Shown: positions 7,665-59,553, counted from the first letter of the whole stretch. The stretch: 63,772 nt of DNA, filler included, from Reclinomonas americana ATCC 50394 (GCA_048213135.1; 6 parts of 5 records of this genome joined end to end with filler, not necessarily neighbours in it); one strand, 5' to 3'. Notes: a model not told the origin generated them from the sequence alone. Translations and numbers: made by a program.

Positions 7665-10600
7665 ATGAGCGCAAGTGAAGCCGGTCCCTCTGTGCTGCCA
7701 GTGGAGCAGCACATGGACGAGGTGTTGGCCTCGGTGCGTGCGCGACGAGTGACGTGCATTCGAGGCGAGACTGGTTGCGGCAAGTCGTCGGTGGTGCCGC
7801 GACTCTTGTTGCAAGACTGGGATGCTGGTGTGCGCGCGCTTGCGAGTCTCCACTGTGGTGCCAGTAGAATGACATTGTGTGGAACAGGTGGCAATCGTCG
7901 TCGTGCCAACATCATCGTGACACAGCCGCGACGCATGGCTGCGGTGTCGTTGGCGCGACGAGTGGCTTCGCAGCTGGGCGAGGAGATTGGAGAGCGAGTT
8001 GCGCGTTGTGCGAATTGAGGGTAGGAAGGGAGTTGTCTCCTCTCTGAGCGTTTTCTCGGCAGGTTGGCTATTGCATCTCGCGCGAACGCGAGGTGGGCGA
8101 GCGCACGCAGCTTACGTTTGCCACTGTGGGCTGGTTCCTCCAGTTCCTCAGCCACCAGCCGCGCAATGTCGACAACTACACGCATGTGGTGTTGGACGAG
8201 GTCCACGAACGCGACTGCGATGCCGATCTGCTCAGTATGTTGTTGAAGGTGCGTCGGTGTTTTGCGTGTGTGTCTGTGTGATGGTGGCGCCAACTGACTG
8301 CATTGTGATGCGTGTCAGGTGTTGTTGCAGGAGCACAAGAAGGTTAAGCTGATCATCATGTCGGCCACGCTGCAGGGCGACCTGTTTTCGCAGTACTTTG
8401 CCGAGCTAAATGCGGACGGTGGGTGCGAGAGAGTTGACGGGAAGCGATGCGCGGCGTGCATTGTCTGTGCTGACAGCTGGGCACACCACACGCACATGCA
8501 CACAGGGAAACCATCGCCGGCAGTGTTTGTCGGCGTGCAGCGGTACCCGGTGCAGGAGTTGTTTGTCGAGGACTTGGCGGGTGTGATCCCGCGCTTTGGT
8601 GGACAGGGTCGTCGACTCGCACAGAATGTGGGCGACATGTTTAGTGGAGGCCGGGCACCCGCAGGCGCCGAAACCGCGGTCTCTGCCGCTGCTTCTGCCG
8701 CCGGCTCATCATCCCGAGTGGTCTGTGCAGTGCTTGCTGAATGATTCGTTGCGCTCAATCTCCACCTTCTCATCATTTGGCGCAGCGAGCCGACATTTTC
8801 CCTGCCACGTACCAGTTGGCGGTGCACACGATTGCGTGCGTGTCGCAGTCACAGACCAGCATTTTGGTGTTTCTTCCCGGTTCCGCAGAGATCCTGCAGC
8901 TGCAGACGGCACTGGAGGACTCGTTTGTGGGACTCTATGTGTCGGAGACGGGCGTGCAGTTGGAGGTGATTGCGACTCGCCGTGTGGAGTGCACACTGTG
9001 CATTAACTAAACTCGTGTTTCGCAGCTGCTGGTACTGCATTCGATGGTCTCGCGCGAGGACCAGGATCGCGCATTCGAGGAGGTTCCTGCCGGCTGCTGC
9101 AAAGTCATCCTGGCCACCAACATTGCCGAGAGCAGCATCACCCTTCCCGACGTCAGCTACGTTCTTGATTTTGGCTTGCATCGACACGTCGTGGTGAGTG
9201 TGTGATCGGTCGGTGCCCTCAGGTCTCACCAGGGTCGTGAGCTCACGCTCCACTCCACTCCACAGGTGGATCGCGAGAGGAAACACATGGCATGCTTGGT
9301 GAGCCGGCTTCCTTTCGCACATCATTTGTCACCCGCAGTTGCTCACTCAGTAGTGGTGCAGATCAAAACCTGGTGCAGTCGTGCATCCATGACGCAACGC
9401 AAGGGCCGTACTGGTCGACTGGCACCCGGTTCCTGTGTGCGCTTCATGACGCGGCAGTTTTTCGAGGAGTGCCTCACAGATTTTGATACGTTGTGTATTT
9501 TGCGCACCGCACTACCCATCACGCCATCCACCGTGCATCTCACAGTTGGCCGCGCAGTGCGGAGATGATTCGAGTGCCGCTGCAGCAGATTGTGCTGCGC
9601 GTGATGCTGCTGTTCCGGGCATTCGGCTCGCTCAAGTCGCTGCTTGCGCAAACGGTGGAGAGCCCACTGCCAGAGGACGTCGATTTTGCGCTGCGCGAGT
9701 TGTATCACGAGGGGGCCATCACGTCGGCCACCGAGGAGGCGCGAGTGACGTTGCGTATTATGCCGCATGCTCGCAGTCACTTTCTCTCTCTCTTTCTCAC
9801 TGGTGGTGCAGTGTGTTGGGCGAATTGGCGGCGCGCTTGCCAGTGGATTTGCAATTGTCGAAACTCGTTCTGCTTGGTCTCGCCATGGGCTGCGAGTGCG
9901 ATGCGGTGCGTTTTCACTGGCTGGCGTGCACGTCTCAATCCACCACTGGATACTCACTCGTGTGCTTGTGCGCAGCTGTGCATGGCCGCCGCACTGGCGT
10001 CGCAGGATTTGTTTCTGCAGCCATCGGCCCATTTCCTGGACCCGTACTCGCTGGCGCGGGAGATGGAGGCCAATCTGAAGAGTCGGATGCGATTCGACGG
10101 AGGCGTGTACAGCGAGGTGCAGTGCTCGTTGCAATGTGTTGGCCACGCTTGTTGATACGACCCTCTATAACTTGGAGGCCTCGCAGCCCATCATGTACCG
10201 CAACTTGTTGCGCTCATGGCTCGCCTCACCGCGCAGTCGTGCTTGGGCTCGCGACCGTTCCGTGTCGTTTGAGCGCATCAGCAACTGTCACTCTCTGGTG
10301 GCCGACATGGCCAACACACTTCTCACGTTCCTTCGAGAGCAACTACGGTCGGCGTCCGCCAGTGCCGCGTCTGCATCCTTCGAGATGCTGGAGGTGCTGT
10401 CCAAGCCGCCTCGTCGCAGCGGCGGTGGCGGTGGTGGCGGTGGTGGGGACAGTGACAGGCCGGCCACCAAGTTGTCCTTCCAGAACAATCCGATGGTGTT
10501 GCAGTTGCTGCTGGCCAGTGCCTTTTCGCCGTTTTTCGTGCACGGCAGAGTGCGCCGAGATGCAAAACTGGAGCGACTGGTGCGCGCGCGTGTGTGTGTG

Positions 10601-13065: not shown

Positions 13066-15000
13066 TCACATTGACGACGACCCTGCGCCACCAGCAAGCA
13101 TTGCTCGCATCTTCTGCGGTGACACCTTGACGCGAACGATGCAGTGCACCAAATCCTCCTCATCGATGTGCTCGTCCGAAAGGTGCGTGAGCAGTGTCAT
13201 TGCGCGGTCAAAGTTGGCCACAATCAGCTGCTTCTTGAAATACCGGAGGATGCCTGTGGTGTGCGTGGTAAGTCACTCATCCAAGTCTCATTCCTCAACA
13301 GCTTCAAACTGAACCGACCTAGTCCCACGCGACACAAGTACGGCAAGCCGTCGAGGAAGAACCGGTCCCAGATGCGGCAAATCACGTCGAGCGGCAACGA
13401 TCGACTGAAACATGTGAGGTACCTGTAGTGTTCTTCGTGTGAGCGACGAGAGAAAGAAAGAATACCTGCAACACATGATGATGATGATGTACGCAACCAC
13501 TCGATAATGTAGGTTGTTGTCTCCACGCCGATCTGCTTGAAGTGCTCAAACAGCTTTGGTAGTTGCTCTTCGAAAAAGAAGTCAAAGATGCGAGTGTGCT
13601 TCTCCAACTGTGCGGCGACGAGATAGGTGAGTGAGTAGTTGCGAGTCCGTCGCAGAGCTCTGTATCTCGCAGTGACACACACACACACATACCTCCTTCA
13701 TCTCCATGCGGAAATACGGCACAAAGTGGTACTTGCTCATCATGTTGGCCAGCACCACAAAAGCCTCGTACTCGTCCAGATGCAGCAGCAGCACAGCAGC
13801 CAGGTAGGACATGCCTTGCACGTAGCCAATGTCTGGTCTGTACGCCACGTACGTCTCCAGCAGCCTCCACAGCGGCTCATACATGGGACCGCCTTCTTGG
13901 AACAGGTTGAGAATGGGGAATGTGCGGGTCAAATCCATCATGATGATGCTTGCGCTGGCCTCTCGACTCGGACCGGTGGGCGACGGCATGGCGCCCGTCT
14001 GAGTGAAGCATGCAAGTGTGAGCCACTAATCGCTAGCAGCATCCAATCCTGGCCACACACCTCGCGATTTTCTCTTGCCTTGTCTCGCATGATAATGTAC
14101 AAGTCGTGCGTGATTTGCAATTCGTTGCCTGTTGTGCAAGTTTAGACTGCGAAGGCATTTCGCGAGATACTGACGACAGCAATCACGCACCGACAGCCAG
14201 CATCCATACTCGTCCACGCACAGATGGTGGCAAACCTTGCTTCCACAATCTCCGGACCTTGCGTGAGCGCTTCAGTTGCGGATCCCAGTTGGGAATGACT
14301 TCTGTTTTCCAGATTTCTGCCGCGTGAAGCATGAAGATTTCACGCTTCCGCATCCGCTCCTCGCGCTCCTTGGCGAGACGCTCCTCTGTTGTGCGTGTCC
14401 GAGAAGGAAAGCATGTGGGCGACAGAATCCTATCAAAGAACAATTGCAATACGCGGGGGGAGGTGGCGACGAACCCTTGCGTTGGAACTGCCGCTCCAAC
14501 TCCTTTTTCAGTTCGACGTGTCTCGTGTGTTCCTTTTCTGATTTCGGTGGAGCATCACTGATGTGGGTGGGAGGCGATTGTCAGCGACTGCGCGAGGCAG
14601 CAAGGAAAACAGAAAAGCTTGGAAAAAAGCACGCAACAGAGGTCGTGGGTTAATCGGCAAAATGGTGGACTCGGGTTGTGAGGGCGTCGTTGGCGCCTCT
14701 TCCTTGGCCTTCTTGAACAGGGAGGAGCTNNNNNNNNNNNNNNNNNNNNAACCACGAAAGTGAGTCTCGGCGCGATGAAGAGGAACTCTGTTGCATACGG
14801 CACACGCAACACGTCGCCTCCCGAGATGCGCGGCGAGACACCGACGCGCTTGATGTTTGGCCTGTACGACGGCGAGCTGCTACCAGCAACGCCACCAGGA
14901 GTTCGTGGAGCTGGGGCCGACGTGGAATGTCACTAATGCACGAGAGAGGGGCGGATCTGTGGCAGCGACGACAGCATGGAAGAGGAGGAGACAGCATTGA
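13066..15000 (-). CDS. TBC-domain RabGAP, TBC1D12/TBC1D14-like (start not resolved)
   Basis: LWKQGLPPSVRGRVW, IIMMDLTRTFP, YRPDIGYVQGMSY, EWYLTCFSRSLPLD, RIWDRFFLDG. Stop TGA at 13066-13068. Confidence 0.88.
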
Positions 15001-15814: not shown

Positions 15815-18592
15815 ATGTCGACGACGACGACGACGACGGCCAAGGCGAAACGAGTTGCGTTTCATATTTTGTGCGCTGTGTATACGTGTTTGTGTTTCGC
15901 TCACAATGTGGTCGATCCAGCCGCGATCGGCGTCGACTGAGGTGCGGTGTTGGGCATCATTGATTGATCGCTCTTGTCGTCGACGAAGGTGATTGACTTG
16001 TGTTGTGTGTACGCAGCGACGACGTGGCGTTGGCGGAGATGCGGCCTTGTCGCCGTACAAGAACACATCGGTGCTTCGTGAAGTGCAGGCGGCTGCGTCA
16101 ATGCCGATTGCTGCTGCCGCTGCTACTGCAGCTGCGAGGCCGGCCAGCGCCGGTGGCAAGTCTCGCGCCTCTGCACGGTCTGTGTGTGTGTCGTTCCTAC
16201 AGTGCTGCGGGAGTGTTGCTCACTCGAAGTGACAAAGAGCGCTGATGATGTATCGCGGACCGGCTGCTCCCGATGTTCGTGTTCCGCGGAAGCCGCGAGC
16301 GGCCTCGCCTCCGGCACCGGTGCGTTCGTCGTCGCAAACCTCGTTGCGACGACTGTTCGAGCCGCCACCGCCGCCGAAGCAAGCACACATGCCACTGGTG
16401 ACAGCGAGCTCGTCGCGAGTTGCGTTTCCTGTTGTCGCGGCTTCATTTTTCCTCCATCGCATTGTGTTGTTGACGCACCGCCGGCCGGCCACAGTCGTTC
16501 CACAGCACCAGCAGCTCGGCCACAGACGACAGTGAGATTGCAGCACTGGTGCATGCCTTTCGTGCGACACGCGCCGCCACACAGGCGACCGCCGATGCCA
16601 CTCGTCGTCGATCGGAGCGAGCGGCCACTGCCGAGAGCATCAGCGTCCCAACACGGCGTCTACCGTCCGTGCGCCGATTCACGAGTGGCGATCAGAGTAT
16701 GCAGAGTTCGGGATCGGTGGCGACTGAAGTGTCGCCGACAAACTCCACATCTGCAGCGTCCAGTCGTGCCGCTGTGGCCTCGGCCGTCACATTTTCGTCA
16801 ACAACAGTCACCGCCACCACCACCACCACAACAACAATAACAGCGACGACGATGAAAGCGACGGCGACAGCAGTCAGCGAGTCGACGGAATCAGAGAAGC
16901 GAGTCGATGGCAAGAAAAAGTGAGTGGTTCTTTGCTTATGTCGTGAGACTCGGTGCTCATGATGCACACGCACAGATCGCGGCGAGAGGCTGCTCAGGCG
17001 CTCTCCATCGAAGTGGTATCACCGACGCAGGCACAGAAGCACGCACCGCATGTGTCCTCAGCAAATCCCGGCATCACAATCGCTGTTGTCGACAGTGATT
17101 CCACGCCGGTATGCTACTGTGCACCACCGAATTCAGTTTTGTTCTTCTGCGCACGTCAGCTGACTGCGTCTTCTTTGTGGCAGGTGTCTGCGGAGACTCC
17201 GATGATCATCCAGACACCACCACCATCATACACATTGTCGACGGTCACTGAAGCGCCATCGCTCTCCATCACAGTTGCGTCGACGGCGGGATTCATGTAA
17301 CTGCTTCCTCGTTGTCATACCAATTGCTCTTTACGTGCAGGGCATGCCATCGCAGCGCACACAGGTACCGCAGTCCACTGTGGTGGTACTACTCTCCCTT
17401 TGCGCGCACTCATCTGCGTTCGACGTGGTGCAGGGTCGTCGACAGTCGCTTTCGGTAGGCCCCAACGCACTCGGGCTTTTGTCGCCCTCATCACCCGGAG
17501 TTGCGTTTCACTGCGTGCCAAGCAGCGCGACCCTCGCACACACATTGACACTCTGCATGGGGGACGCAGAACGGAGGCACATCGGGACGCTTCAATCCAG
17601 ACTCGGCCCGATCGACAGCATCAGCGGTCGCCCAAGCGCGCCAAACGCACAGAACAGCGCGCATTCTGGACGAAAATGTGCGCACGTGGAGACGCAGAAA
17701 GACCTTCACAACCTCGCCGTCGTTGCTAATTTGGTTTAATGTGTGTGTGTGTGTGTGTGCAGTGGCAACCGGCCACCTTTACGCAAGAAGCACCGCTGGC
17801 GACGGTGATTACAGTGCGAGCGCGCGACCAGTCCATGCACGCCGCCGTCCCGCTCATGCTGGTGACCGCTGCCGACCTGCTGTTGAATTCCGCGAGTGCG
17901 ATTCCCGCCCCCTCGGCCAACAACATTCAGACCGACGACGACATTATGCGTGAGAATGTGATGAAGGACGCCATGCGTGCAGCAGCTGCGGCCGCCATGG
18001 CGTCCGCAGAGAGCCATTTGTTCCGCGTTCGCCGCGGATCAGTGATTGATCCAACGCAACAACGCCGTCTATCGATGGACGTTAGTCTGGTTCCCACACG
18101 TGTGCCGGCCGCCACCCTGCTGACGTCGTCGCATGCGGTCGACTTTGAGTGGCAGCAGTTTGCCGCCACACTACCACGCATGATACACGTGGACCTGGCA
18201 CGCTCCGAGGCACGAGTGTGGCGCTCACTTGACAAGAACGGCGAGTTCACCGTGTCGGTGCTTGGCGGTCACCAAGTACTGGCGTACGAGGTCGCGAGAC
18301 GGGTACGTGGTGGCAACATCGGCATCGCATTTGTCTCGCTCTGCCCCCCACTGCTGTTTCTGTTTCTGCAGACGGCCACGGATGGAGTAGACGGCGCCGG
18401 CGCCTTGCACGACATGGACTTTACATTTGCTCCACCGGCCACACTCAAGTGTCCCAGTATTGCCGGTGTGTGTGCATGTGTGCACTGTTCCACTTGTGAT
18501 CACACAATGCTCATCGTCGCGGCACAGATTGTCTCTTTGTCCTCGAGTGCAAAGTCGAGCGCATTGTGGAAGTCGATGAGAGATGGGAGATT
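15815..18592 (+). CDS. Uncharacterised multi-exon protein, 3'-truncated at gap
   Basis: Low-complexity N-terminal part, then a globular-looking segment (WQPATFTQEAPL...FEWQQFAATLPRMIHVDL...), with GT-AG introns. No stop before the Ns. Confidence 0.5.
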
Positions 18593-18612
18593 NNNNNNNN
18601 NNNNNNNNNNNN

Positions 18613-20264: not shown

Positions 20265-22530
20265 TCAGAACAGGTCCAGCTGCTCAAAGAACGTCAGCAT
20301 GCCCTTGGCACGCATGTTCCACAACTTGATGCAGCGGTCCGCCGAACCAGTGGCCAACTGCACCATATGCACGTTAGCAAAGGCAGAGGAATGCGAGACA
20401 CCCACGGCACCAACTCACCACATGTTGATGTGTGGCAAATGCACAGTCATAAATGCCGCCGCCGTGAGCACGGAAACGTACCACTGGCTCACCCGTGGCC
20501 ACCGTGTGCACACTCATGTAGTTGTCGAGGCCGACGGTGAACATGAGTGAGTCCGTGAACTGTGAGAGCACGACGTGAACATCTTCTTGCACATTCAGCA
20601 ACGGGGGTGAGCATGCATAGCCAACATACCTCGATTCCGTGCACTGCGCCACTGTGCACATTGAAGGATCGAAGAATGGCATTGTTGAGGCGCCAATCGC
20701 GCAGCTGTGCACAGACATGCAGTGAGCGGCGAAGCACTCTCAACTGTGCCCTTTCCCTTTCAGTACGCACCTCGACAACACCATCGCACGACGATGAAGC
20801 AATCTGGTTGCCAGTGTCGGCGAGTTTCAGTTTCAACACTGAACTCGTGTGTCCTCGGTAGAGGCTCACACAGTGGCCACTCCGCATGTCCCAGATCTGC
20901 ATCAACGAGGTACTGCATGAACGCATACTCTTCCAGTGCAAACAATGGTTTGTGATCGCACCTTGACACGTCCGTCGTCTCCAGCCGTGGCCAACAACTC
21001 GCCGTCTGAGTTCGGCACAAAAGACGACGTGTAAATGTTCATGGAGTGCGCCGCCTCCAGTGTCGTGACCGCCTGAACACGAAAGGAAAAGAATTATGAG
21101 AAGGCACACAGCGTGCATGGGAGTCGATCGCCGTGCACACCTTGCCCGTCTCCACATCCTGCAAGTAGATGCGCCGGAAACCACCGTATGCAACCTGATT
21201 GCAATGCGTACTCCAGGCCACCGTGCGCAGACACTCGTTCGAGCGGCCAGTGAACGTTGCCATGCATTGCAACTGCATCCGGTTGGCATGTGAATCATAA
21301 CGCACATCCATGGATAACACAAACACATCGCACGTACTTCTCGAATGTTCCACACACGCATGGTGCCATCAGCCGATGCCGACGCCAGCAAATCACCTGC
21401 GCGTCAGTGATGAACACACTGCAACTGAACAAGAGCAGGGGAGAGCAGCAACAGCGCACCAGCAGAGTTGAAAGCAATGTGATGGATGGCCGCGGAATGC
21501 CCAGTGAATACGTGCAACTTCAATGCCTCCTGTGTTATAAAAGAAAAAATGAGTCACAGAGGGAGGAACAACGGAGATGACTGACAACGCACCTTGCCAG
21601 CTGTGCGACATTCAAATTGTGCCCATGATCAAGCAGTACATGCGTGAGTGATACGGAAAAAATGAACTCTTCAATGAGTAGTGAGTTCTGGGAAGCTCAC
21701 CAACATTCCACAGAATGATTTCTGCATACAAGACCATGAGCACGAGTAGCGAAACGTAGCACAAGACAGGCACGCTGCGCAACTCTCGTCATTGCCACCG
21801 GAGCACATGAAGACCTGATCGATGGGGTTGAAGGCCAGTGTGTACACAATGCCACCATCTGTAGAAAACGCGGCGTGAGCGCATGCTTGTCACGAGAAGT
21901 ACAGGGCCACACGCAACGTCCACGACATGTAGACATCAGCATGTCCTTTGGTGTAATGTGTGGTCTGGGCAGTGGATCGTCGGTCGCCATAAACGTCTGG
22001 TTGCGAAACATGCTGGAGCCGGCGGTGCCGACGACGGTTCGGTGAACCGTGGTGTCGGCTGACTCATCGAACCACACATGACTTGGTGAGCCGAGCTCCA
22101 TCCCTGGTGGGGCCAAAGAAAAAAACGATGAGCAAGACACGCCACATACAGAAGCACAGGTCAACAGACGCAGCAACACAGACCAGGAAGGTTGCAGGGA
22201 ATGTTGAACTCGGTTTCCGAGTCGGAGTCGTCGGTTGTCGACGATGCTGTTCCTGACGGCGACGACGACAAGAGAGCCGACTGTGGCACAAGACGATGAG
22301 TGCAACAGCACAGCAGCAACAAGCAGCATGGAGCACTCCACAAACATCGCCAGCTGGTGTTGCTGGCGGCAGCGATGGCGGCGACAGGACAATGCCAGTG
22401 GGTGGGCTCTTGATGGTGGAGGAGCGTGGCGATACCTTGGCCGACACGCATCGACTGGGTGTGTACTTGAGGAAGGCAACATCAGTTGACGCGCGGTCCA
22501 GGAACTGCACACGGTGCGGTGAGCGAGGCA
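20265..22530 (-). CDS. WD40-repeat protein (5' end near scaffold end)
   Basis: Repeated GH...WD-type units: SGGNDEKIILWN, LASASADGTMRVWN, IWDMRSGHCVSLYRGHTSSV, LATGSADRCIKLWN. Stop TGA at 20265-20267. Confidence 0.88.
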
Positions 22531-22649
22531 ATCGCGATGAGGGAATCAGCAGCAGTAAAAGCGTGCTAACGCACCGACTGGCTGTGAATCATGTCTTGCC
22601 CGGAANNNNNNNNNNNNNNNNNNNNNNNNNNNNNNNNNNNNNNNNNNNN

Positions 22650-29155: not shown

Positions 29156-29201
<46 letters not shown>

Positions 29202-41055: not shown

Positions 41056-42798
41056 TCACAAGGCGGTGCCACGCTCGAGATTTTCCTTGATCGGCGCCGT
41101 GTACTTGTCGTAGTAGCGCGAGAGCGTCTTGTTGAACTTGCGGTTCTGGTCGTTGATGTAGGTGACGTCCTCGTCCTCGTACACCTGGCGGCGGCGGCTC
41201 CACGGGCGACCACTGTCATAATCAACAAGAAGTGAGCAGACGGGCACTGGCTGCTGGTGCACCTTCATCTTGGAAACGCAACGCCTTGGTGAGATCCTGA
41301 ATGAGGTACTCGACGCGCTCCGGCTTCACCTCGCCCTTGCCGCCATAGTGCATCGAGTCCACATCGCGATACAGCTCATCGTCGGGCTTCTCGGCCTTGG
41401 CGACCTCGTAGCCCTCCACGTCCAGTGGCGCCTGTNNNNNNNNNNNNNNNNNNNNNNNNNNNNNNNNNNNNNNNNNNNNNNNNNNNNNNNNNNNNNNNNN
41501 NNNNNNNNNNNNNNNNNNNNNNNNNNNNNNNNNNNNNNNNNNNNNNNNNNNNNNNNNNNNNNNNNNNNNNNNNNNNNNNNNNNNNNNNNNNNNNNNNNNN
41601 NNNNNNNNNNNNNNNNNNNNNNNNNNNNNNNNNNNNNNNNNNNNNNNNNNNNNNNNNNNNNNNNNNNNNNNNNNNNNNNNNNNNNNNNNNNNNNNNNNNN
41701 NNNNNNNNNNNTCTCTCTGTGGGCCTCTCCCCCTGCTGTCATGCTCATCCATTCTCTACAGCAAAAATCACGCAAGCTGAATCGCGACGCGGTGAAGAGC
41801 GAGGAGATGAACAAGTTGCACGGGAAGAAGGGCGGGCGCGGGAGGAGACCGCCGCCCTCTGGCGAGGACGATGGCGAGGATGGGCCGCAGACCGGCAGCA
41901 AGGAGGAGAAGTGGATGCAGGCGACGGCAGAGCAGGCGGAGATGTGGGAGAAGAAGCAGCAGAAGAAGCACAAGCGCGCGGCGTCCAACTCGATGGAGAG
42001 TTGCGTTTTCCATCATCGTTCTTGGTTCTTTTCCTCGCCAGCTTGCTCACGTTTTGCTGGTGTGCAGGGTTCACGGTGGAGGGCACATATCGCGCGTACA
42101 AGAAGCGCATCTCNNNNNNNNNNNNNNNNNNNNNNNNNNNNNNNNNNNNNNNNNNNNNNNNNNNNNNNNNNNNNNNNNNNNNNNNNNNNNNNNNNNNNNN
42201 NNNNNNNNNNNNNNNNNNNNNNNNNNNNNNNNNNNNNNNNNNNNNNNNNNNNNNNNNNNNNNNNNNNNNNNNNNNNNNNNNNNNNNNNNNNNNNNNNNNN
42301 NNNNNNNNNNNNNNNNNNNNNNNNNNNNNNNNNNNNNNNGCACGCAACAATCTTCATCTTGATCTCAAACAGACGCTTCTGTGTCGGTGTCATTTGCAGG
42401 TACTCGTCGGTGCTCTTGTAGTTCTCCATGTCAAACGTCGCTGGCTCCTCTGGATCCAAGCCCAGCTCCTCTTTTCTCTTGAGCTCCTGCTCATGCACCC
42501 ATGAGCAACAACAACAACTCATTGTGCGCGGGTGACACACTCACCTGCTTTCTCTCCTCGCGTCTCCAGTCGACCTCGGCCTCATCATACGAAATCGGCA
42601 TGTTCTCCTCCAGCACACGCAAACGTGCTGCGCGCTCTGCTGTTGACTCACCAAAGTACGTCACCGGTTGCCCTGTGTGTGCGTGTGAGAGAGAGAGTGT
42701 GTGTGAGTCGACAACGGACTTGACGCTCAAATCACTGTCTGTGAGAGAGTACCTCGCAACCTCAGTCGCTGTATGACCTCGTCCTCAGACAACTCCAT
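41056..42798 (-). CDS. SYF2: Pre-mRNA splicing factor SYF2 with N-terminal PRP4/SFM-like segment; middle exons (41762-42113) lie on the + strand
   Basis: KRLFEIKMKI|QKSRKLNRDAV, YRAYKKR, and C-terminus YINDQNRKFNKTLSRYYDKYTAPIKENLERGTAL*. Confidence 0.9.
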
Positions 42799-46300: not shown

Positions 46301-48449
46301 NNNNNNNNNNNNNNNNNNNNNNNNNNNNNNNNNNNNNNNNNNNNNNNNNNNNNNNNNNNNNNNNNNNNNNNNNNNNNNNNNNNNNNNNNNNNNNNNNNNN
46401 NNNNNNNNNNNNNNNNNNNNNNNNNNNNNNNNNNNNNNNNNNNNNNNNNNNNNNNNNNNNNNNNNNNNNNNNNNNNNNNNNNNNNNNNNNNNNNNNNNNN
46501 NNNNNNNNNNNNNNNNNNNNNNNNNNNNNNNNNNNNNNNNNNNNNNNNNNNNNNNNNNNNNNNNNNNNNNNNNNNNNNNNNNNNNNNNNNNNNNNNNNNN
46601 NNNNNNNNNNNNNNNNNNNNNNNNNNNNNNNNNNNNNNNNNNNNNNNNNNNNNNNNNNNNNNNNNNNNNNNNNNNNNNNNNNNNNNNNNNNNNNNNNNNN
46701 NNNNNNNNNNNNNNNNNNNNNNNNNNNNNNNNNNNNNNNNNNNNNNNNNNNNNNNNNNNNNNNNNNNNNNNNNNNNNNNNNNNNNNNNNNNNNNNNNNNN
46801 NNNNNNNNGTACCTTGGTGACGATTGGTCTGGATTCGTTTGGCAGTCGACGCGCAGCCAGCAACTGCGTCCGTGCATCCGACATCTGGCGAAACGCATCA
46901 GGAGGCTGCATTCACACACACACACACCTCTGTCCATGCATACCTCAGGTAGTGCAGCATTGCGTTGCAAGGCGTCGAGATCGGGAAGTGAGAGGAACCA
47001 ACTCTGGCCCTGATTCAGCAGCAAAACATGATTACAAGTGGAAAGAAGAAGAAGAAGAAGGAAAGAGCCAATGACACACCGCATTGGAGCTTCCGCTACT
47101 GCCGCCGCCACCACCGCCAGTCATGGTCTGCACTCGTGTGTTGTGTAAGACCGTGGTCGACGTCGGAGAAACAAAAGAACACAATCGAACAAACCTCGTC
47201 ACCCGGCGGCACCGGCGACACATCGTCATCGTCGTCCTCATCGTCTTCATCCTCCTCGTCCTCGTACTCGTGGCCTCGGTCGTCGTCGCCGTCGCCATCA
47301 GCTGGCGGAACTGGTGTCTCATCACGCTCGCTGCCACTCGACGAACTCAGCATCTCGGACGACGTCGACAAGTGCTGTCATAGGCGCAGGTGAGTGATTG
47401 TAGCCAGACGCATTGCAGCGTGTCACGCACACACCGAATCGGGGTCAATTATTATACGAGCAGCGATCGTCGTCGTCGTCGTTGTCGTCGTGGTCGATGT
47501 CGACCTCGACGAGGACCGCCCAGCAGACTGCCGACCTCGCGACGCAGGTGCCGCCAGTGGTGGTGGTGGCGGTGGCACGGGTGCAGCAGACGCCGACGGC
47601 TGTTGGAGCGAGGTGAGTCGATATGAGAGAGAGAGTGAAGACACGCAGTGGCGTCCGTGACAAACCCGTCGCCGAGACTTGGTCGGTGCTGGGTACAGCA
47701 TGGGTGCAGACCGCGGCTTGAGTGGTGGCGGCTTGGCGACACCGGAAGTGGTGCTGTCGTATTTTTTTGTGAGGACGGGCGGAAATCACAACGCATGACG
47801 ATACGGCGCAACTTGCGACTCGCGTGATTGCTCCGTCTGCCGCGCTGCACTGATTTGCTGGCAGCAGTGGTGCCGTGGCTGGCGGCAGACGGCGTCGTGG
47901 TGGCGAGAGAGGCGAGGAGAGCAGCAAACTTGTGCATCTCGGGATCGACAGCAGTGGCTGCATGCACATCACTACTGTTCAGCACTCGCAACTCACGCAG
48001 CGACACAACAACAACAACCGCGCACAGACGCAACGACTGTCGCCGTCCATGGAGGAGCCATCGCTCTCCATACCATCGTCATCTTCCTCCGCCTCGTCAT
48101 CGTCATCGACAGCCTCATGACGGTCACCGTCGTCGCTGTCGACATCCTCCACTTCTTCTGCGTGATCGTCCACACGCATCGATCGCCCTCTCGATCGATG
48201 CCCACTCCCCTGTTGCTGCTGCTGTGGCACACGGCGAGCACCACTGTGGTGGTGATGGTGTTGATGCAGCGCAGTCATGGCTGTGTGTGGGTGGAGAGAA
48301 GGGGAGAGAAGGGAGCGCGGGAGAATGAGATGACAAGGAAATATGCACAAGGCATACACACACACGCGCGCGCAACTTGCGGAGGAGGCGACAGTGGTGC
48401 TGGTGCGCAGCGACGATGGAGGCGGTTGTGCCCAGGTTTCCATCTGCAT
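43342..48449 (-). CDS. Large uncharacterised multi-exon protein (possibly more than one gene), internal gap
   Basis: Acidic/His-rich N-terminal exons and globular exons (RLYVLDVAIQGV...VSFQFKITGYAEHLCLVVMVMD..FSPVVRLFARDKLTGMGKKKPK) bounded by GT-AG introns. Confidence 0.5.
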
Positions 48450-49134: not shown

Positions 49135-49234
49135 NNNNNNNNNNNNNNNNNNNNNNNNNNNNNNNNNNNNNNNNNNNNTTAATTAATTAANNNNNNNNNN
49201 NNNNNNNNNNNNNNNNNNNNNNNNNNNNNNNNNN

Positions 49235-51860: not shown

Positions 51861-53713
51861 ATGAGCGCGAAAGACAGCGAGGTATCTGCGTGCATGCGTG
51901 CAAGCACACACGCAAGGTCCCTCACTCTTTGTCTGCACACCACAGTCCGCCGCTGTTCGGCGTCGCGGAATGCCCACCTCCTCCTCTTCTTCCGCCTCCG
52001 ACGAACAACAAGCCGCCTCTCCTCTTCTCAAGCCCTCCGCCTCCTCTGCCTCTCTCGCCTCGCGCTCTCAGCGTCGCCGATTGGTTCTCATCGCACTCGG
52101 CGTCACATGCACTGTGCTCCTCGCATTGTACCTGCTCACCCCAATGGCCGAGGCCGGACTTGGCTTCAAGTCCAAGATCATGTGCTCGGCGCTCTTTGTG
52201 TCACAGCGTCCGCGGGCGCACATTGAGGCGCGCGAGCTCAACTCGTCGCGCAGTCCGCTGCTGGCACTCATGCAGACCACAGTGGACGAGGAAGCAGGCA
52301 CAGTGACCTCGTCGATGCTCTTTGGCTTGTTGTCGGTGACTGCGGCGTATCGCCCGGGTGTCGGGTGCACGCTGGTGCACCCTCGTGGAGCGGCGGTGCA
52401 TACGCTGCATCCTGTCGGAGCTCCGGTGACTGGGCTTGCGGATGAAGAAGACAGCAGTGGACTGGATCTGCAGACGGACATTGATCCGCGCGTGCAGAGT
52501 GTTGTGGACGAGTACATGGCCGATTTCATGCAGCAGCGGCACACGCGAGCGGTGGTGGTGGTAAGGGCCGGTGGGCGTGTGATTGCGGAGAGCTACGGCG
52601 ACTCTTTTTCGTCCAAGAACCGCCATCAGGGGTGGTCGATGAACAAGTCGGTGGTGCATGCGCTCATTGGCATCCTGGTGCGCGAGGGCAAGCTGCTTCC
52701 GGAGCAACCGGCTCCGGTGCCCGAGTGGCACGAGAAGCCAGACGATCCGCGCGCCAGCATCACCGTGGAGCATCTGCTGCGCATGTCGTCAGGCATTCAG
52801 TTTGAGGAGAAGTACTATCCCCCGTCACAGTTTCGTGGCCAGTTCCCGCGTGTCGTCGCTCGCTCTCCCTCACTCCCCCTCACCATACGCAGCGTCACCG
52901 ACATGCTGTTTCGCTCGCCGTCGGCCGCCGCCTACGTGGCTCAGCTGCCGTTGGAGGGCGAGCCGGGCTCTGTGTGGTACTACAGCAGCGGCAGCACGAA
53001 TTTGCTGGCGCGCATCTTTGGCGACATGGTGCGGGAGATGGGCGAGGATCCGGTGACGTTTGCGCACCGTGAACTGTTTGCACCGCTCGGCATGTGGTCC
53101 ATGGTGGCCGAGGTCGACGCGCACGGAGATTTGGTCTCGTCGTCGTTTGGGTGAGATTTCGGGGAAGGGGTTAACTTTTGTGGGTTGTGGGTGCTCAGTT
53201 TATTTTGTGCAGACATGCTACGGCACGCGACTGGGCGCGATTCGGCTTGCTGTACCTGCACGGTGGTGTGCACTGGCAGACCGGACAGCGCATTCTGCCC
53301 GAGGTGCGTTGCGGTTGCTGGCCAGCGTAATGAGTGTCATTCATGATGCCTGAGTGCAGGGGTGGGCGGAACACGGCTGTCGGCTCACGCCAGCGAGTCG
53401 TGGCCGGTACGGCGCGCAGTGGTGGCTGAACAATCCGACCAACGATCCCGACGGCGTCGCCATGTACCCACTGTTGCCGCGGTCGGCTTGCTTCGCCTCG
53501 GGGTTCGAGGAGCAAAAGGTCGGCGTGCGTCCAGTGGCACACACACACACGGGAATTGAGCTCACGCGCATGTTTTGTGTGTTGCAACAACAGGTCATTG
53601 TGTTGCCGGAGCAGCAGCTGGTGATTGTGCGACTTGGATACACACCGGACGAGCCTGTGGCGGAGATCAATTCACTCGGCGGTGCTCTGGTGGCTGCCGC
53701 GGCGTCTTCGTGA
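51861..53713 (+). CDS. Class C beta-lactamase/serine hydrolase family protein with N-terminal membrane anchor
   Basis: SxxK (WSMNKS), ITVEHLLRMSSG, WYYSSGSTNLL, ELFAPLGM, HATARDWARFG, GFEEQK|VIVLPEQQLVIVRLG. Five GT-AG introns. Confidence 0.9.
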
Positions 53714-54821: not shown

Positions 54822-57353
54822 CCGCTGTCATCGCTGCCGTGAACACCTCCTGCACGTTGAGGCGCGTCTTGGCGCTGCACTCCATGTATCGTGTGGCACC
54901 GATTTCCAGCGCCAGCTCCTCGCCTTCCCTGGTGGAGATGCATTGTGGGTTCTGCTTGTTGGCCTCGCGGAGATCCCACTTGGTGCCGACGAGGATGACT
55001 GGCGAAGCGGGCGTGAGCGGGGGGAGCGAGAGGAAGAGTGTGGAGAGAATGGAGACACGAACCGTGTGTATTCGGAGCAAAGTGACGGACCTCGCGGATC
55101 CATAGCCGACGCACGTTGTCGAATGATTGACGGTTGCAGAGGCTGTGCGCGGCAGTGAGTGCGACTAAAAGAGAGAAAAAGAGAAAGAAAGAGAGACGGA
55201 GGCAAGAAGTAGGAGAAAGCTTGAGGAAATGCGAGAGAGCGAGAGGGGGAAAGAAATGGAGAGACAAACACGGAGGAGCACAGACACACGCAACACGGAT
55301 CCAGAGTGCTGGGAGGTAAGAGGAACCGACAACAGGAGAGAGAGCGTGAGAACTGGAGAGCGACAACGAGAATGAGAAGCACAACTTTGCAGATTTTATA
55401 CACAACGAAGAGCGAGAAAGGGAGAGTGCGAAAGAGACGAAAGGAACGAAGAGATAAAGCAACACGTGCACGGATACAGAGCGCCAAGATCCGAAAGAGA
55501 GGGTCCGAGCGAGAACTCGAGGGGAAAGACGAAAGAACAACGAAGGAGCAACAGAGAAAGCGACAGGAAGAGACAGAGAGACTGAGCAGCACAACTTTGC
55601 AGATTAAAACACAACGAAGCAACAAAAAGAAAGAAAGAGACAGAGAGATGGACGGAAAGGAACAGAGAGATTAGTNNNNNNNNNNNNNNNNNNNNNNNNN
55701 NNNNNNNNNNNNNNNNNNNNNNNNNNNNNNNNNNNNNNNNNNNNNNNNNNNNNNNNNNNNNNNNNNNNNNNNNNNNNNNNNNNNNNNNNNNNNNNNNNNN
55801 NNNNNNNNNNNNNNNNNNNNNNNNNNNNNNNNNNNNNNNNNNNNNNNNNNNNNNNNNNNNNNNNNNNNNNNNNNNNNNNNNNNNNNNNNNNNNNNNNNNN
55901 NNATTGCTTGATCTCTCTGTTCCTTTCCGTCTCTGTCCCATCTCTCTGTCTCTTCTTTCTTTTTGTTGCTTCACTGTGTTATAATCTGCAAGGTTGTGCT
56001 TCTCAGTCTCTCTCTCTCTCTCTGTTGCTTGCTCCTTCGTTGTTCTTTGGTCTTCTCGCTCGGACCCTCTCTGTTGAATCCTTGCCACGGTTATTNNNNN
56101 NNNNNNNNNNNNNNNNNNNNNNNNNNNNNNNNNNNNNNNNNNNNNNNNNNNNNNNNNNNNNNNNNNNNNNNNNNNNNNNNNNNNNNNNNNNNNNNNNNNN
56201 NNNNNNNNNNNNNNNNNNNNNNNNNNNNNNNNNNNNNNNNNNNNNNNNNNNNNNNNNNNNNNNNNNNNNNNNNNNNNNNNNNNNNNNNNNNNNNNNNNNN
56301 NNNNNNNNNNNNNNNNNNNNNNNNNNNNNNNNNNNNNNNNNNNNNNNNNNNNNNNNNNNNNNNNNNNNNNNNNNNNNNNNNNNNNNNNNNNNNNNNNNNN
56401 NNNNNNNNNNNNNNNAACCGTGGCAAGGATTCAACAGAGAGGGTCCGAGCGAGAACTTGAGAGAGAACTTTAAAGAACAACGAAGCAGCAAGCAACAGAG
56501 AGAGAGAGAGAGACCTTTGGCCTCTTCCCTCACCTGAACGCAATCAAAAACGCATTGGTGCCGGGATACGCCAACTGTCGCAGCCGCTCATACTCATCCT
56601 GCACACAAAACAGAGTCAAACCACCACCTCAAAAAAACATGAAGAAAACAAAGCACAAAGAAGACGAAACCTGGCCCGCAGTGTCGACCAAATCTACTCT
56701 CACGCCAATCAGTGATCCTCCTTACAAACAAACACGCCACTTGCAAGACGCAACTCAGAGTCATTTCTTGGCCCTCGCCCACGTTCAGAGTCACTTGATA
56801 TGCGTCGACTGAGAGAGAAGAGAAGAAGAAGAAGAGAAAGAGATCTCTGAGTGAGACGAGGGCAGCCATTGGACACTCTCTTCTCTCTCTTTCTCTCTCA
56901 CACATTACGCAACAGACAGTCGGAACCTGTGTGTGTGTGTTCGATGCATATCAGACACGAGTGCACTCACACACGAGAGAATGACACTGTGAAAAACGCA
57001 ACCCAATCCTCTGGAAACTCGTTCTTGACTACACAACAGAGAGAGCGACAGAGAGTGAGAAGCCGTGTTCAAGGAGTGAGCGCGATATGTTCCGCACTCA
57101 CTGTACGTCATGACCTGAGTGTGAGAGAGAGAGAGTGAGTGAGAGTGTGTGAGTGTGTGTGAGGGAGGGAGGTGCACGCACCAGTGACGTCTTTCCAGCG
57201 CCTCCATCGCCCACGATCTTTGCGTGTGACAGTGTGTGAGTGTGAGAGAGTGGACGATAAGAACATGAGTGTGTGTCCTCTTTTACGCACCACACATTTG
57301 ATTACAGCAGGAACGACGTCTTTTGAGGGCGACGCGGGTGCAGCCGCGCTCAT
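54822..57353 (-). CDS. Rho/Rac-family small GTPase, micro-exon rich; last exon not seen
   Basis: Spliced sequence IKCV|IVGDGGAGKTSL|VMTY|IKNEFPEDW|VPTV|FDAY..N|LVDTAGQ|DEYERLRQLAYPGT..., VILVGTKWDLR, YMECSAKT. Confidence 0.92.
55370..56510. repeat. About 210-nt unit tandem repeat in a Rho GTPase intron, one copy inverted
   Basis: AGCACAACTTTGCAGATT at about 55378 and 55588. GAGAGGGTCCGAGCGAGAAC at about 55497 and 56437. Reverse-complement copy at 55903-56095. Confidence 0.75.
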
Positions 57354-58458: not shown

Positions 58459-58697
58459 GTGAGTCAAACTCCCTCTCTCTTGCTTGCATGCATCAGTGAC
58501 CGACTTCTAATGCTCATCGCGCTCTCTTTCTCCCTCCCCACTCNNNNNNNNNNNNNNNNNNNNNNNNNNNNNNNNNNNNNNNNNNNNTTAATTAATTAAN
58601 NNNNNNNNNNNNNNNNNNNNNNNNNNNNNNNNNNNNNNNNNNNTGGTGGTATGAGGGGCTGCAACACACAAACGCACACATTGATACAAGTGCACAC

Positions 58698-59553
58698 CAG
58701 CGCCTTGCTGCCGAATATCCGCTTCAGCTCGCCGGAAGGATCGAGCAGTGCAGTGTTCACGGCCAGCAGTGCATCGACCGCGTCGTAAAACTCCCCGCTT
58801 CCTGCAGAGGACGCCGCGGAGGGCGCGGATGCCGATCCACTGGCACCCTCGCTCACCGCCAGTTTGGCCATCTCTCTGTTGGGAGGGGGTGAGGTGAAAG
58901 AAGGGAGAAGGGAGAAGGCGAAGGGAGGGGGAGAGTGCAGAAGGGTGAAGGAAGAAAGGGAGCGAGTGGCAAGACCAAGATCCACGCGCTGCACAATGAC
59001 AACTCAACTCCAAGAACGCTTCATCCTCATCGATCGGTTCACCGTCAGCCGTCGCAGTGGGCAACGGCGCCGCCACCGCTGCCTTCTTTACCTTGCCCTT
59101 GCCCTTGTTCTTGTTCTTCTTCTTCTTGCTGCTGCTCTTCTGCTGCGTCGTTGCTGTCGTTGGCGCTGGTTGCTGCTGCACAGGCTCCCGACGCAACGCA
59201 TCGGCCACCGGCATATCATCATCGTCGTCATCGTCATCATCGTCGTCATCTTCCTCCTCCTCACGCCGCTGCAACTCACCATCAGAGCCGCAAATAGTCG
59301 CCAATCACCATGCATGCACACAAACCTGACCAAATCGCACCACGCGAACCACCTCTTCTCCCTCGTCATCATCGCTGCCAGGAGCAGCGCGTCTCACAGG
59401 CGGCGGACGCATCACACGCATTCCCATGTCATCATCATCTTCATCATCTTCATCATCATCACCAGCTGCGCGCTTGCTCTTTGCCTTGCTCATGGCCAGA
59501 GACAGCGCAGGATCATCCTCGCCACGGAGCTTCCTCAGTGCGCGACGCGACAT
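58698..59553 (-). CDS. TCF25: TCF25/Nulp1 (Rqc1) homolog, 5' part
   Basis: Starts MSRRALRKLRGE. Basic KKKKNKNKGK tract. LLAVNTALLDPSGELKRIFGSKAL. Confidence 0.8.

Follow-up and report, generated by a model that had tools for sequence, protein, structure and literature searches.

How are intron starts read at a locus where so many of them begin with the same unusual heptamer? The window (the whole stretch of DNA that was analysed, 63,772 nucleotides with filler included) is intron-rich; its introns are short, with a median of 68 nt, and its genes mix 5' splice sites of two kinds. The ordinary (N-type) sites have the consensus G/GTNNG[T/C], with GTGCGT as the commonest form, the slash marking the exon-intron boundary; the second kind (S-type) has the consensus A/GTTGCGT and the general form GTT-NN-G[T/C]. 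GTTGCGT donors are rare in other organisms, which suggests an unusual reading of intron starts here. All junctions in the window rest on predicted gene models and protein homology.

The heptamer is far more frequent than expected. There are 41 copies of GTTGCGT on both strands of the window, against a mean of 13.89 in 100 dinucleotide-preserving shuffles (sd 3.15, largest 20, none of the 100 reaching 41) and a third-order Markov expectation of 13.8. A self-trained gene finder, in which any GT was allowed as donor and no donor motif was learned (the donor-blind pass), called 173 introns in the window; a second, donor-aware pass was also run. The first three intron bases in the donor-blind set were GTT in 67, GTG in 67, GTC in 21 and GTA in 18, and the top donor heptamer was GTTGCGT (19 of 173). 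Nineteen of the 41 copies were called as donors, compared with 173 of the 7,749 GT sites overall (binomial p = 6e-21), and strict GTTNNGT donors numbered 25 of 173 against 2.5 expected from all GT sites (p = 1e-17). With S-type donors defined as GTTNNG[T/C] and N-type donors as GTNNG[T/C], the donor-blind set contains 31 and 75, respectively; thus S-type introns are 18% of all donor-blind introns and 29% (31/106) of those with a recognisable core, and they are present beside N-type introns in 19 of the 28 gene models. The earlier note had claimed that such donors are used routinely, and this is supported: S-type GT-AG introns probably account for about one fifth of the introns in the window.

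Eight S-type junctions are exactly confirmed by conserved proteins, four in a Rho GTPase and one each in a threonine aldolase, a DEAH helicase, a TBC domain and a serine hydrolase:

56927..57002, minus strand: S-type intron, Rho-family GTPase gene, 76 nt, tgg/GTTGCGT, called by both passes
56809..56913, minus strand: S-type intron, Rho gene, 105 nt, tct/GTTGCGT, after a 13-nt microexon (56926..56914)
56694..56754, minus strand: S-type intron, Rho gene, 61 nt, tga/GTTGCGT, both passes
56599..56670, minus strand: S-type intron, Rho gene, 72 nt, cag/GTTTCGT, both passes
6840..6904, minus strand: S-type intron, threonine aldolase gene, 65 nt, cat/GTTGCGT
7998..8062, plus strand: S-type intron, DEAH-box helicase gene, 65 nt, cga/GTTGCGC
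13423..13497, minus strand: S-type intron, RabGAP-TBC gene, 75 nt, gtg/GTTGCGT, called by neither pass
52830..52892, plus strand: S-type intron, beta-lactamase-like serine hydrolase gene, 63 nt, aca/GTTTCGT, in frame and stop-free

All eight are GT...AG, there is no alternative in-frame GT at any of them, and no residue is lost or gained. In the Rho gene, the spliced product at 57002 (...FPEDW/VPTV...) aligns gap-free to homologues P0122 and P0121, the one at 56754 (...QEMTL/NLVDTAGQ) to P0122, and the one at 56670 (DTAGQ/DEYERLR) to P0121 and P0122. The junction T/TC at 56913 restores the Phe of PTVFD, a motif common to P0122 and P0121, and shifting the cut by one base gives Cys instead. This is the only junction at which the cut is fixed to the base, and it lies in front of GT; at 6904, 7998, 56670, 57002 and 13497 the next exon starts with G, so that a cut one base later would look identical. 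The exon upstream of the 6904 intron matches Pfam Beta_elim_lyase 97-138 to its last residue and the downstream exon, from its residue 3, matches 141-179, thus the profile is continuous at 138/139. The exons flanking the 7998 intron are numbered consecutively in the helicase structures 9nhs_G (206/207), 5d0u_A (116/117) and 3kx2_B (171/172), and further consecutive matches are 6id1_V (216/217), 5mq0_V (559/560) and 5yzg_Z (608/609). At 13497, Pfam RabGAP-TBC 135-168 corresponds to residues 2-35 of the upstream exon and 172-205 to residues 2-34 of the downstream exon; the split codon TG/G encodes Trp, and the profile is unbroken across the junction. Excising the 52830 intron improves the alignment score in 40 of 40 homologues (median +25), and homologue P0001 is gapped exactly at this intron.

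The remaining sites come from the gene models, with homology of varying strength:

41213..41282, minus strand: S-type intron, SYF2 gene, 70 nt, ggc/GTTGCGT, weakly supported
42000..42067, plus strand: S-type intron, inverted middle piece of the SYF2 gene, 68 nt, aga/GTTGCGT, both passes
9750..9811, plus strand: S-type intron, DEAH helicase gene, 62 nt, gac/GTTGCGT, both passes
9490..9557, plus strand: S-type intron, DEAH helicase gene, 68 nt, tac/GTTGTGT, donor-aware pass only
1595..1666, plus strand: S-type intron, 72 nt, GTTGCGT, both passes
2057..2126, plus strand: S-type intron, 70 nt, GTTTCGT, both passes
2822..2891, plus strand: S-type intron, 70 nt, GTTTCGT, both passes
3268..3347, plus strand: S-type intron, 80 nt, GTTGCGC, both passes
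14588..14637, minus strand: S-type intron, 50 nt, GTTGCGT, both passes
15854..15920, plus strand: S-type intron, 67 nt, cga/GTTGCGT, both passes
16419..16494, plus strand: S-type intron, 76 nt, cga/GTTGCGT, both passes
17274..17340, plus strand: S-type intron, 67 nt, aca/GTTGCGT, both passes
17500..17569, plus strand: S-type intron, 70 nt, gga/GTTGCGT, both passes
21722..21783, minus strand: S-type intron, WD40 gene, 62 nt, aga/GTTGCGC, both passes
21859..21917, minus strand: S-type intron, WD40 gene, 59 nt, gac/GTTGCGT, donor-aware pass only
27934..27999, plus strand: S-type intron, TPT/EamA transporter gene, 66 nt, gca/GTTGCGT, both passes
32756..32820, plus strand: S-type intron, GPCR gene, 65 nt, GTTCCGT, both passes
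38582..38659, minus strand: probable S-type intron, villin-like gene, gct/GTTGCGT, donor-aware pass, acceptor uncertain (38600 or 38582)
44089..44148, minus strand: S-type intron, 60 nt, GTTGTGT, both passes
45259..45320, minus strand: S-type intron, 62 nt, gca/GTTGCGT, both passes, in a run of GTTGCGT donors in one gene
45411..45472, minus strand: S-type intron, 62 nt, tct/GTTGCGT, both passes
45581..45646, minus strand: S-type intron, 66 nt, aat/GTTGCGT, both passes
45715..45794, minus strand: S-type intron, 80 nt, aca/GTTGCGT, donor-aware pass only
47958..48034, minus strand: S-type intron, 77 nt, gtc/GTTGCGT, both passes
48281..48376, minus strand: S-type intron, 96 nt, GTTGCGC, both passes
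55165..55294, minus strand: S-type intron, 130 nt, cgt/GTTGCGT, both passes, length equal to the model ceiling and acceptor uncertain
35381..35441, minus strand: GTTG site, TPR gene, 61 nt, cga/GTTGCGA, both passes, one mismatch from the consensus and outside the S-type definition (A at +7, not T or C)

In the SYF2 gene, the 41282 intron is the top of 12 stop-free GT..AG combinations scored against five SYF2 homologues (171.0; best other donor, 160.2), and its downstream exon matches Pfam SYF2 112-154; the score of the 42000 intron ties with alternatives at 63.6. The exon downstream of 9750 weakly matches the helicase HA2 region and the upstream exon is without a PDB match, and the exon downstream of 27934 matches Pfam TPT 224-290 with no match upstream. 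The donor-blind alternative to 9490 is a GT at 9469 with the same acceptor, and that to 21917 is an in-frame GT 9 nt upstream. At 38659 the homology score (363.1) is tied with that of a GTCCACC..GAG alternative (364.6).

All 23 GTTG and GTTTG sites listed in the earlier note carry the letters given for them. Of the 21 GTTG sites, the donor-blind pass placed 14 exactly and the donor-aware pass 17. Neither pass called 13497, 42348, 25809 and 59008; the unbroken Pfam profile still confirms the first, the site at 42348 meets an N gap, and the GTTGAGT sites 25809 and 59008 are without support. The two approximately placed GTTTG sites have the right letters but start at 39673 and 40743 (not 39675 and 40744), and these donors do not belong to a shifted class: they fit the ordinary GTNNGT pattern, with G occupying both +5 and -1. 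At least a dozen class members had been missed, e.g., 1595, 6904, 17274, 45320, 45472, 45646 and 48034, and the GTTTCGT sites 2057, 2822, 52830 and 56670.

The two donor classes differ in core and exon context. Ordinary donors had been described as mostly GTGCGT or GTGAGT; in the donor-aware set only 30 of the 108 have either form, the real consensus being GTNNGT, mostly GTGNGT. The S-type core at +4 to +7 is G in 81%, C in 90%, G in 100% and T in 81%, with A at +5 in 0%, and the information at +4 and +5 is 1.2 to 1.5 bits, against 0.3 to 0.4 at the matching ordinary positions. A GC core is found in 23 of 31 S-type and 22 of 75 N-type donors (p = 3e-5), and the ratio of GTTGCG to GTTGAG is 31:0, compared with 29:19 for GTGCG to GTGAGT-type. 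Of the two cores named in the earlier note, GCGT is present in nearly all S-type donors and GAGT in none; GTTGAGT, with 4 copies against 6.2 expected and 0 called donors, drops out of the class. Given the GC bias of the core and the lack of A at +5, the S-type class is not merely the ordinary donor set shifted by one. Its one-mismatch variants GTTTCGT, GTTGTGT and GTTGCGC mirror the ordinary GTTCGT, GTGTGT and GTGCGC.

The extra base is always T: GTAGCGT, GTCGCGT and GTGGCGT have 4, 12 and 17 copies with 0 of 33 called as donors, against 19 to 25 called donors among the 41 copies with T at +3, so only T is tolerated there. On the exon side, G at -1 is found in 4 of 31 S-type and 60 of 75 N-type donors (Fisher p = 1.2e-10); at 13% it is below base composition in the S-type, compared with 80% in the N-type. 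A takes 14 of 31 S-type -1 positions (45%), close to its share at -2 of ordinary donors (47%). The observation that the -1 base is usually not G and often A is thus upheld, and so is the description of GTTG donors as the usual donor displaced by one, with T obligatory at +3, -1 G lost and the slid exon context fitting. Scored against the ordinary context slid by one, the exon sequence at S-type donors has a log-likelihood of -127.8, compared with -164.6 when the register is left unchanged. A uniform model does almost as well as the slid one (-128.9), the information coming chiefly from G being lost and A gained at -1.

In other respects the introns are alike. Median length is 68 nt in S-type and N-type, and a branch-like CTSAY motif, scored as CT[C/G/A]A[C/T] for both classes, lies in the last 45 nt of 23 of 38 S-type (61%) and 65 of 93 ordinary introns (70%); its median distance from the 3' end is 17 nt in both. 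The pyrimidine fraction between -18 and -4 is 0.61 and 0.58, and the 3' end is CAG in 34 of 38 and 83 of 93, respectively. Blastn of the 131 introns without their first 8 bases found no sequence families among them, only microsatellite matches in both classes. The S-type introns have the properties of U2-type GT-AG introns: GT-AG ends (GT start and AG end of the calls being imposed by the finder's construction), protein continuity at the eight confirmed junctions, and a branch-like motif with a pyrimidine tract. The single TATCCTT-like site in the window is a GC-AG intron.

The RNA that reads ordinary donors is U1 snRNA. We propose, with a probability of roughly 0.55, that on S-type sites the U1 pairing moves one base downstream, with cleavage still before GU. 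In this shifted register, the intron +1 G would take the place of the exon -1 G, the +2 U would be the single mismatch of the duplex, the +3 U and the GCGU core would take the places of the +2 U and the +3 to +6 core, and the exon -1 base would occupy the usual -2 place. Cleavage would stay in front of GU because later spliceosome steps need GU. The T-only extra base, the loss of -1 G and the slid exon context favour such a putative +1-shifted register over a bulged U. More tentatively, and at odds that we put below even, the partner arm could be complementary to UGCGU and differ from the textbook U1 arm at positions 5 and 6, since C is demanded at +5 and A never occurs. In nearest-neighbour models, the textbook arm gives a shifted duplex of only -1.8 kcal/mol and favours the unseen GAGU form, and a G,C arm gives -7.6 kcal/mol, within the ordinary-site range. 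Thus the GCGT-not-GAGT core is not predicted by the textbook arm. Among ordinary donors of the donor-blind set, GTGAGT makes up 4 of 15 without -1 G and 2 of 60 with it, an excess that would fit the textbook arm and speak against an altered one; with 3/18 and 8/75, the donor-aware set shows less of this trend.

The strongest rival, which we consider improbable though worth weighing, keeps the same U1 in its normal register at +1 G and +2 U, with one U (+2 or +3) flipped out so that GCGU pairs as +3 to +6. The extra base is always T beside the +2 T, as U slippage would give, and the register is documented for human sites in the available text of PMC4856993. All the duplex models that were tried also rate the bulged duplex with -1 G above the shifted one in stability (-11.9 vs -7.6), and three of the eight homology-validated sites have -1 G. 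But an exon kept in register should retain -1 G at the ordinary level, and it is lost across the S-type class as A rises; keeping the register unshifted costs 37 log-likelihood units; and an A, C or G bulge is never used. As -1 G is depleted although the bulged duplex that has it is the most stable, duplex stability alone does not explain the data.

Somewhat less probable again is a second U1-like snRNA with an arm complementary to GUUGCGU, which would serve the S-type sites and leave the rest to standard U1. The strict S-type consensus at +4 and +5 and the core ratio, by which the class is more than a displaced copy of the ordinary donors, agree with this, as does the GC core that a textbook arm would not select, and the two U1 genes with different 5' ends of Sulcionema specki offer a precedent (PMC12621601, section 8). 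However, no snRNA gene of any kind was found within the window, and the -1 A, which a shift of the same arm predicts, is not needed by a separate arm. Both classes also share length and 3' signals, are mixed in single genes and even flank one 13-nt microexon, and the S-type variants mirror the ordinary ones.

Common descent from an introner with a GTTGCGT end, rather than recognition, could give a strict consensus and clusters (five S-type introns in 43342-45858 and five in 15815-18770), and the text available from PMC3879977 describes introner families with family-specific donors in Micromonas; yet beyond the first 8 bases the S-type introns are alike only in microsatellites, their lengths and 3' signals are those of ordinary introns, and they also lie in old conserved genes, inside invariant motifs, so this origin is very unlikely. 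Equally remote is an artefact, in which GTTGCGT would be a motif of introns or exons lying close to true donors, and both the gene models and the earlier note would have misplaced the junctions: an initial naive gene finder gave noisy calls, neither class accommodates 90 of the 173 donor-blind donors, many of them probably wrong, and homology does not part 38659 and 42000 from their alternatives, but at eight junctions the numbering of a profile or homologue sets the boundary and there is no other in-frame GT, and the enrichment at donor-blind donors is strong.

How does the proposed shifted reading compare with known systems? U12-type introns are read by their own snRNA and have extended minor-class donor and branch motifs. 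Like them, the S-type is a second class whose 5' consensus is longer and stricter than that of the main one; a U12-type identity is rejected, as GTTGCGT is unlike the minor-class donor and the introns have main-class branch and 3' signals. Minor introns are 0.36% in humans (PMC4856993, as far as its available text goes). S-type introns are far more abundant.

Variant U1 snRNAs are known in humans. In the diplonemid S. specki there is likewise more than one 5' splice site-reading arm in one genome, but section 8 of PMC12621601 ties no separate donor class to the variant. In Ostreococcus, donors are GTGCGTG outside chromosome 2 and GTRNGT on it, and Micromonas has canonical AG/GTGCGT, BOC1 introns and introner families; the authors ask, in the parts of PMC2483917 and PMC3879977 available, whether snRNAs changed to match the donor classes. 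The window resembles these algae in having a GC-rich ordinary AG/GTGCGT beside more than one donor class. Their classes are split by chromosome region, base composition or repeat family, whereas those here are mixed within genes, equal in length and 3' signals, and set apart only by being displaced by one base. An introner-like identity is rejected, because members should share sequence along the intron and only the microsatellite matches were found.

Mammalian bulge +3 (or +2) sites, described in the same available part of PMC4856993, also have one extra nucleotide between GU and the core, and a U beside the +2 U may bulge; in contrast to them, where the exon is in normal register, -1 G is lost here and the extra base is only T. 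The closest likeness is with the mammalian shifted-register "atypical" 5' splice sites, in which, according to that text, all 5' splice site/U1 pairs are displaced by one position (originally reported in 2009, its ref. 10; the bulge register in 2012, its ref. 16). In both, a U at +3 comes after the GU and moves the consensus core along by one base, and the last base of the exon takes the -2 preference (A). Mammalian cleavage stays at GU; here such a cut is fixed to the base at 56913 and is compatible with the other confirmed junctions, several of which are ambiguous. The core here is GCGU, unlike the mammalian one, and A at +5 is never seen. Human shifted pairing was demonstrated by suppressor U1 experiments, and the pairing here is deduced from sequence statistics. 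All validated human noncanonical registers together are estimated at 1.5% of 5' splice sites (PMC4856993); here a single type of this sort accounts for 18 to 29% of the introns predicted. The S-type donors would thus be a variant of the known shifted-donor type, probably unusual in their frequency and their GCGT core.

Our analysis shows that the introns starting with GTTNNG(T/C), here called S-type (consensus A/GTTGCGT, the slash marking the cut), are main-type GT-AG introns, whose donor resembles an ordinary donor (N-type, GTNNG(T/C)) displaced by one base. All results rest on the window DNA, on protein homology and on gene models derived from that DNA, and the sample is a single 64-kb window, in which the S-type class comprises 31 to 38 introns. 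The window holds 63,772 bases, 5,532 of them N in 24 runs, and has a G+C content of about 57% outside the gaps. On its two strands GTTGCGT occurs 41 times; 100 dinucleotide-preserving shuffles give an expectation of 13.89 ± 3.15 and reach 20 at most, and a third-order Markov model predicts 13.8. Downstream of most copies, at a distance of 50 to 110 bases, lies a pyrimidine-rich stretch ending in CAG. An earlier note on this DNA had listed 21 GTTG sites and two approximate GTTTG sites, and the letters are as it stated at all 23 coordinates; the two GTTTG starts lie in fact at 39673 and 40743, and they are no members of the class but ordinary GTNNGT sites with G at -1.

For the donor census, the gene finder must not presuppose the class under test; thus, a self-training Viterbi finder was used in which every GT is a possible donor at equal cost. 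It learns only coding statistics, the last 22 intron bases, intron length and the composition of the intron interior, the first 8 intron bases being excluded from the training of the latter. An earlier version with uniform signals, which lacked those at the 3' end, was discarded for its noise (99 introns, many longer than 200 nt). The donor-blind pass called 173 introns of 45 to 130 nt, with GTT at 67 donors, GTG at 67, GTC at 21 and GTA at 18, and the top donor heptamer was GTTGCGT, with 19. This means that 19 of the 41 GTTGCGT copies were called as donors, compared with 173 of all 7,749 GT sites (p = 6e-21). Of the 173 donors, 25 are strict GTTNNGT without G at +5, against 2.5 predicted from all GT sites (p = 1e-17), whereas GT(A/C/G)NNGT donors number 5 against 7.5 expected. 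The extra base is T only: GTAGCGT, GTCGCGT and GTGGCGT have 4, 12 and 17 copies in the window, and none is a called donor.

When T or C is allowed as the last core base, the donor-blind calls divide into 75 N-type and 31 S-type introns, and the 67 in neither class are probably in many cases misplaced. A donor-aware pass, which learns a two-component donor model, called 164 introns, of which 93 are N-type and 38 S-type (GTTGCGT 25, GTTGCGC 5, GTTTCGT 4, GTTGTGT 2, GTTCCGT 1, GTTTTGT 1). S-type introns thus account for 18% of what the donor-blind pass called and 23% of what the donor-aware pass called; among calls whose core is recognisable, the share is 29%. They stand beside N-type introns in 19 of the 28 gene models. 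Fourteen of the 21 GTTG sites were called in the donor-blind pass and 17 in the donor-aware pass, leaving out 13497, 42348, 25809 and 59008; 13497 was missed by both passes yet is validated by homology, 42348 runs into a gap, and the two GTTGAGT sites (25809 and 59008), which had been counted as class members, find support in neither pass, and GTTGAGT does not belong to the class. The statement that most donors are GTGCGT or GTGAGT was also too strong, as these two account for 30 of 108 in the donor-aware pass.

Conserved proteins fix eight S-type junctions. Genes and features named here and below are as follows.

57353..56534, minus strand: Rho-family GTPase gene
56914-56926, minus strand: 13-base microexon of the Rho gene, between the donors at 57002 and 56913, encoding VPTV plus one base, with GTTGCGT-type introns on both sides
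42486..41057, minus strand: SYF2 gene
41712-42113, plus strand: middle part of the SYF2 gene, bounded by an N run on either side and read on the strand opposite to the 5' and 3' parts
40834-40915, minus strand: first intron of a villin-like gene, GC-AG (gag/GCACGT...ACACAG/gtg), 82 nt
52144-53713, plus strand: beta-lactamase-like serine hydrolase gene with three predicted spliceosomal introns, one confirmed by homology
59919-60630, plus strand: cyclin-dependent kinase gene with a PCTAIRE instead of a PSTAIRE motif, running into a linker after four exons
22606-22705, 49135-49234, 58544-58643, 60587-60686 and 62052-62151: five identical 100-base joiners, in which TTAATTAATTAA is flanked by 44 N on each side, a linker carrying stop codons in every one of the six frames

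In the Rho gene, four of the eight donors are S-type, and the spliced product, IVGDGGAGKTSLVMTYIKNEFPEDW/VPTV/FDAYQVTLNVGEGQEMTL/NLVDTAGQ/DEYERLR (slashes at junctions), aligns without gaps over the junctions to the homologues P0122 and P0121. At 56913 (intron starts are given as the first intron base), the junction T/TC is the Phe codon of PTVFD and moving the cut one base on would yield Cys; thus, cleavage is fixed in front of the GT. At 6904, in a threonine aldolase gene, the flanking exons match residues 97-138 and, from residue 3, 141-179 of Pfam Beta_elim_lyase; at 7998 (GTTGCGC), in a DEAH helicase gene, both exons match the same solved helicases, at least six of them, and the residue numbering runs on from one exon to the next; and at 13497, in a TBC gene, the exons match RabGAP-TBC 135-168 and 172-205 with a split Trp codon between them. 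The in-frame 63-base segment at 52830 (GTTTCGT), in the beta-lactamase-like gene, is missing from 40 of 40 homologues. In SYF2, the S-type junction at 41282 is the best of 12 options by a narrow margin (171 vs 160). Several S-type junctions were placed a few codons off by the donor-blind models. At 38659 and 42000, the homology comparison did not separate the S-type donor from its alternatives; in a PDB search with the exon pair around 9750, the downstream exon gave a weak helicase HA2 match and the upstream exon none, and the exons upstream of 27934, 21783 and 41282 had no match in Pfam.

Several features of these genes and of the assembly are recorded here in their own right. The best match of the Rho exon is Diplonema papillatum (52%), the SYF2 exon matches fungi at 59 to 67%, and the best matches of the villin exon are crustaceans, Fabomonas and a jellyfish at 41 to 42% identity. 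A U12-like reading of GTTATCCTT at 40911 on the minus strand, in the villin-like gene, was ruled out: among all GT/GC..AG options, scored against 40 villin/gelsolin homologues, the GC-AG intron 40915..40834 is the best (111.5 vs 99.8 and 73.0), and the TATCCTT-like letters inside it are a coincidence and no minor-class donor. The relatives that the protein search gave for the beta-lactamase-like gene are all bacterial or metagenomic, at no more than 44% identity; the gene may be an old bacterial acquisition. The middle part of SYF2 is most simply a small contig placed inverted in the scaffold. The six-frame-stop joiners indicate a scaffold stitched from contigs, the other N runs being sized gaps. 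The most frequent 7-mers in the window are (GA)n and (GT)n microsatellites, reaching 287 and 232 counts, and a large number of these microsatellites sit within introns.

Apart from the donor, S-type introns are built like N-type introns. The median length is 68 nt in both, a branch-like CT(C/G/A)A(C/T) is present in 61% of S-type and 70% of N-type introns, its median distance to the 3' end being 17 nt in both, and the CAG end and the base after the acceptor are alike. With the donor removed, S-type introns share no mutual similarity except microsatellites. The difference lies in the donor and the exon bases before it. As the earlier note had described, G is mostly lacking at -1 (4 of 31 S-type vs 60 of 75 N-type; p = 1.2e-10), and A is often found there, in 45% of S-type donors, as it is at -2 in 47% of N-type donors. 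Scored against the N-type profile, the S-type exon triplet has a log-likelihood of -164.6 in the same register and -127.8 after the profile is slid by one base, and a uniform model gives -128.9, which means that the ordinary exon signal is lost and that the residual A at -1 falls where the slid profile predicts. A shifted GCGT/GAGT core at +4 to +7 had also been proposed. The GC core is indeed enriched (23 of 31 S-type vs 22 of 75 N-type; p = 3e-5), but the GAGT form is absent: in the donor-aware pass GTTGCG and GTTGAG stand at 31:0, compared with 29:19 for GTGCG and GTGAG (p = 2e-5). The S-type core is also the stricter one, with G in 81% at +4, C in 90% at +5 and A at neither, whereas the matching N-type positions have G in 59%, then T, C and A in 44%, 37% and 13%. 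Ordinary donors are unusual too: GTAAGT is absent from the 164 to 173 predicted introns, A stands at +3 in only 10 to 12% of them and a pyrimidine at +4 in about 80%, and the acceptor is nearly always CAG, with G or A before it.

The 5' arm of U1 recognises the 5' splice site by pairing with its positions -3 to +6, and few contacts between RNAs are as conserved in eukaryotes. In human cells, a shifted register and a register with a bulge at +3 (or +2) both exist (PMC4856993, in excerpt). From the known pairing and these two registers we infer that, most likely, the arm that reads N-type donors would pair with S-type donors one base downstream. With the textbook arm, the computed duplex reaches -1.8 kcal/mol for the S-type consensus and -4.1 for GUUGAGU, which is preferred yet never used; these values are at odds with a simple shift. 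From the strict GCGU core one would predict either that the U1 arm is altered or that there is a second one. With a hypothetical U1 5' arm in which G faces +4 and C faces +3, the computed values would be -7.6 for the S-type duplex in the shifted register and -15.7 for GUGCGU; such an arm would also explain why GTAAGT is missing and why ordinary donors prefer a pyrimidine at +4. We tentatively propose, with a probability of about one in four, a re-tuning in this lineage of the RNA by which intron starts are recognised: either the U1 arm changed at the two positions facing +3/+4 to pair with UGCGU, or a second U1-like snRNA serves GUUGCGU. An arm pairing with UGCGU would make the one-base-shifted helix strong enough for a fifth of the introns.

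A dedicated second U1 serving the S-type donors is possible, and S. specki, with two U1 genes that differ in their 5' ends, provides a precedent (PMC12621601, in excerpt). Rfam returned 0 matches in the window at the gathering score, and at E <= 1 four sub-threshold microRNA/sRNA chance matches and zero snRNA. A bulged U would leave the register of the exon unchanged, and it is less favoured than the shift because G is avoided at -1 and the extra base is always T; the bulged duplex with -1 G is computed to be still more stable than the shifted one, and its avoidance counts against any pure stability model.

If an altered arm or a second snRNA is true, it would be a lineage-specific change in a step of RNA-RNA recognition that ranks among the most conserved in eukaryotes. 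A genome with a one-base-displaced donor of strict consensus at about one intron in five would show how far the register can move with cleavage still exact, and which later contacts (U6, U5, Prp8) set the cut position. For annotation, finders trained on GTNNGT-type donors will misannotate a fifth of the introns here.

In the literature searched, with its limited coverage, no description of a GTTGCGT/GUUGCGU donor class was found. Diplonemid genomes have (G)/GTATG donors (PMC12621601, in excerpt). Genomes with two donor populations occur in the Mamiellophyceae, where, in the excerpts of PMC2483917 and PMC3879977, the classes are kept apart by region or repeat family, whereas here they are mixed in genes. 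The closest known system is the mammalian shifted-register 5' splice site, and all validated noncanonical registers together are estimated at about 1.5% of human 5' splice sites (PMC4856993, in excerpt). Shifted and bulged registers are rare exceptions in mammals, whereas here the S-type start is in routine use, at about one intron in five.
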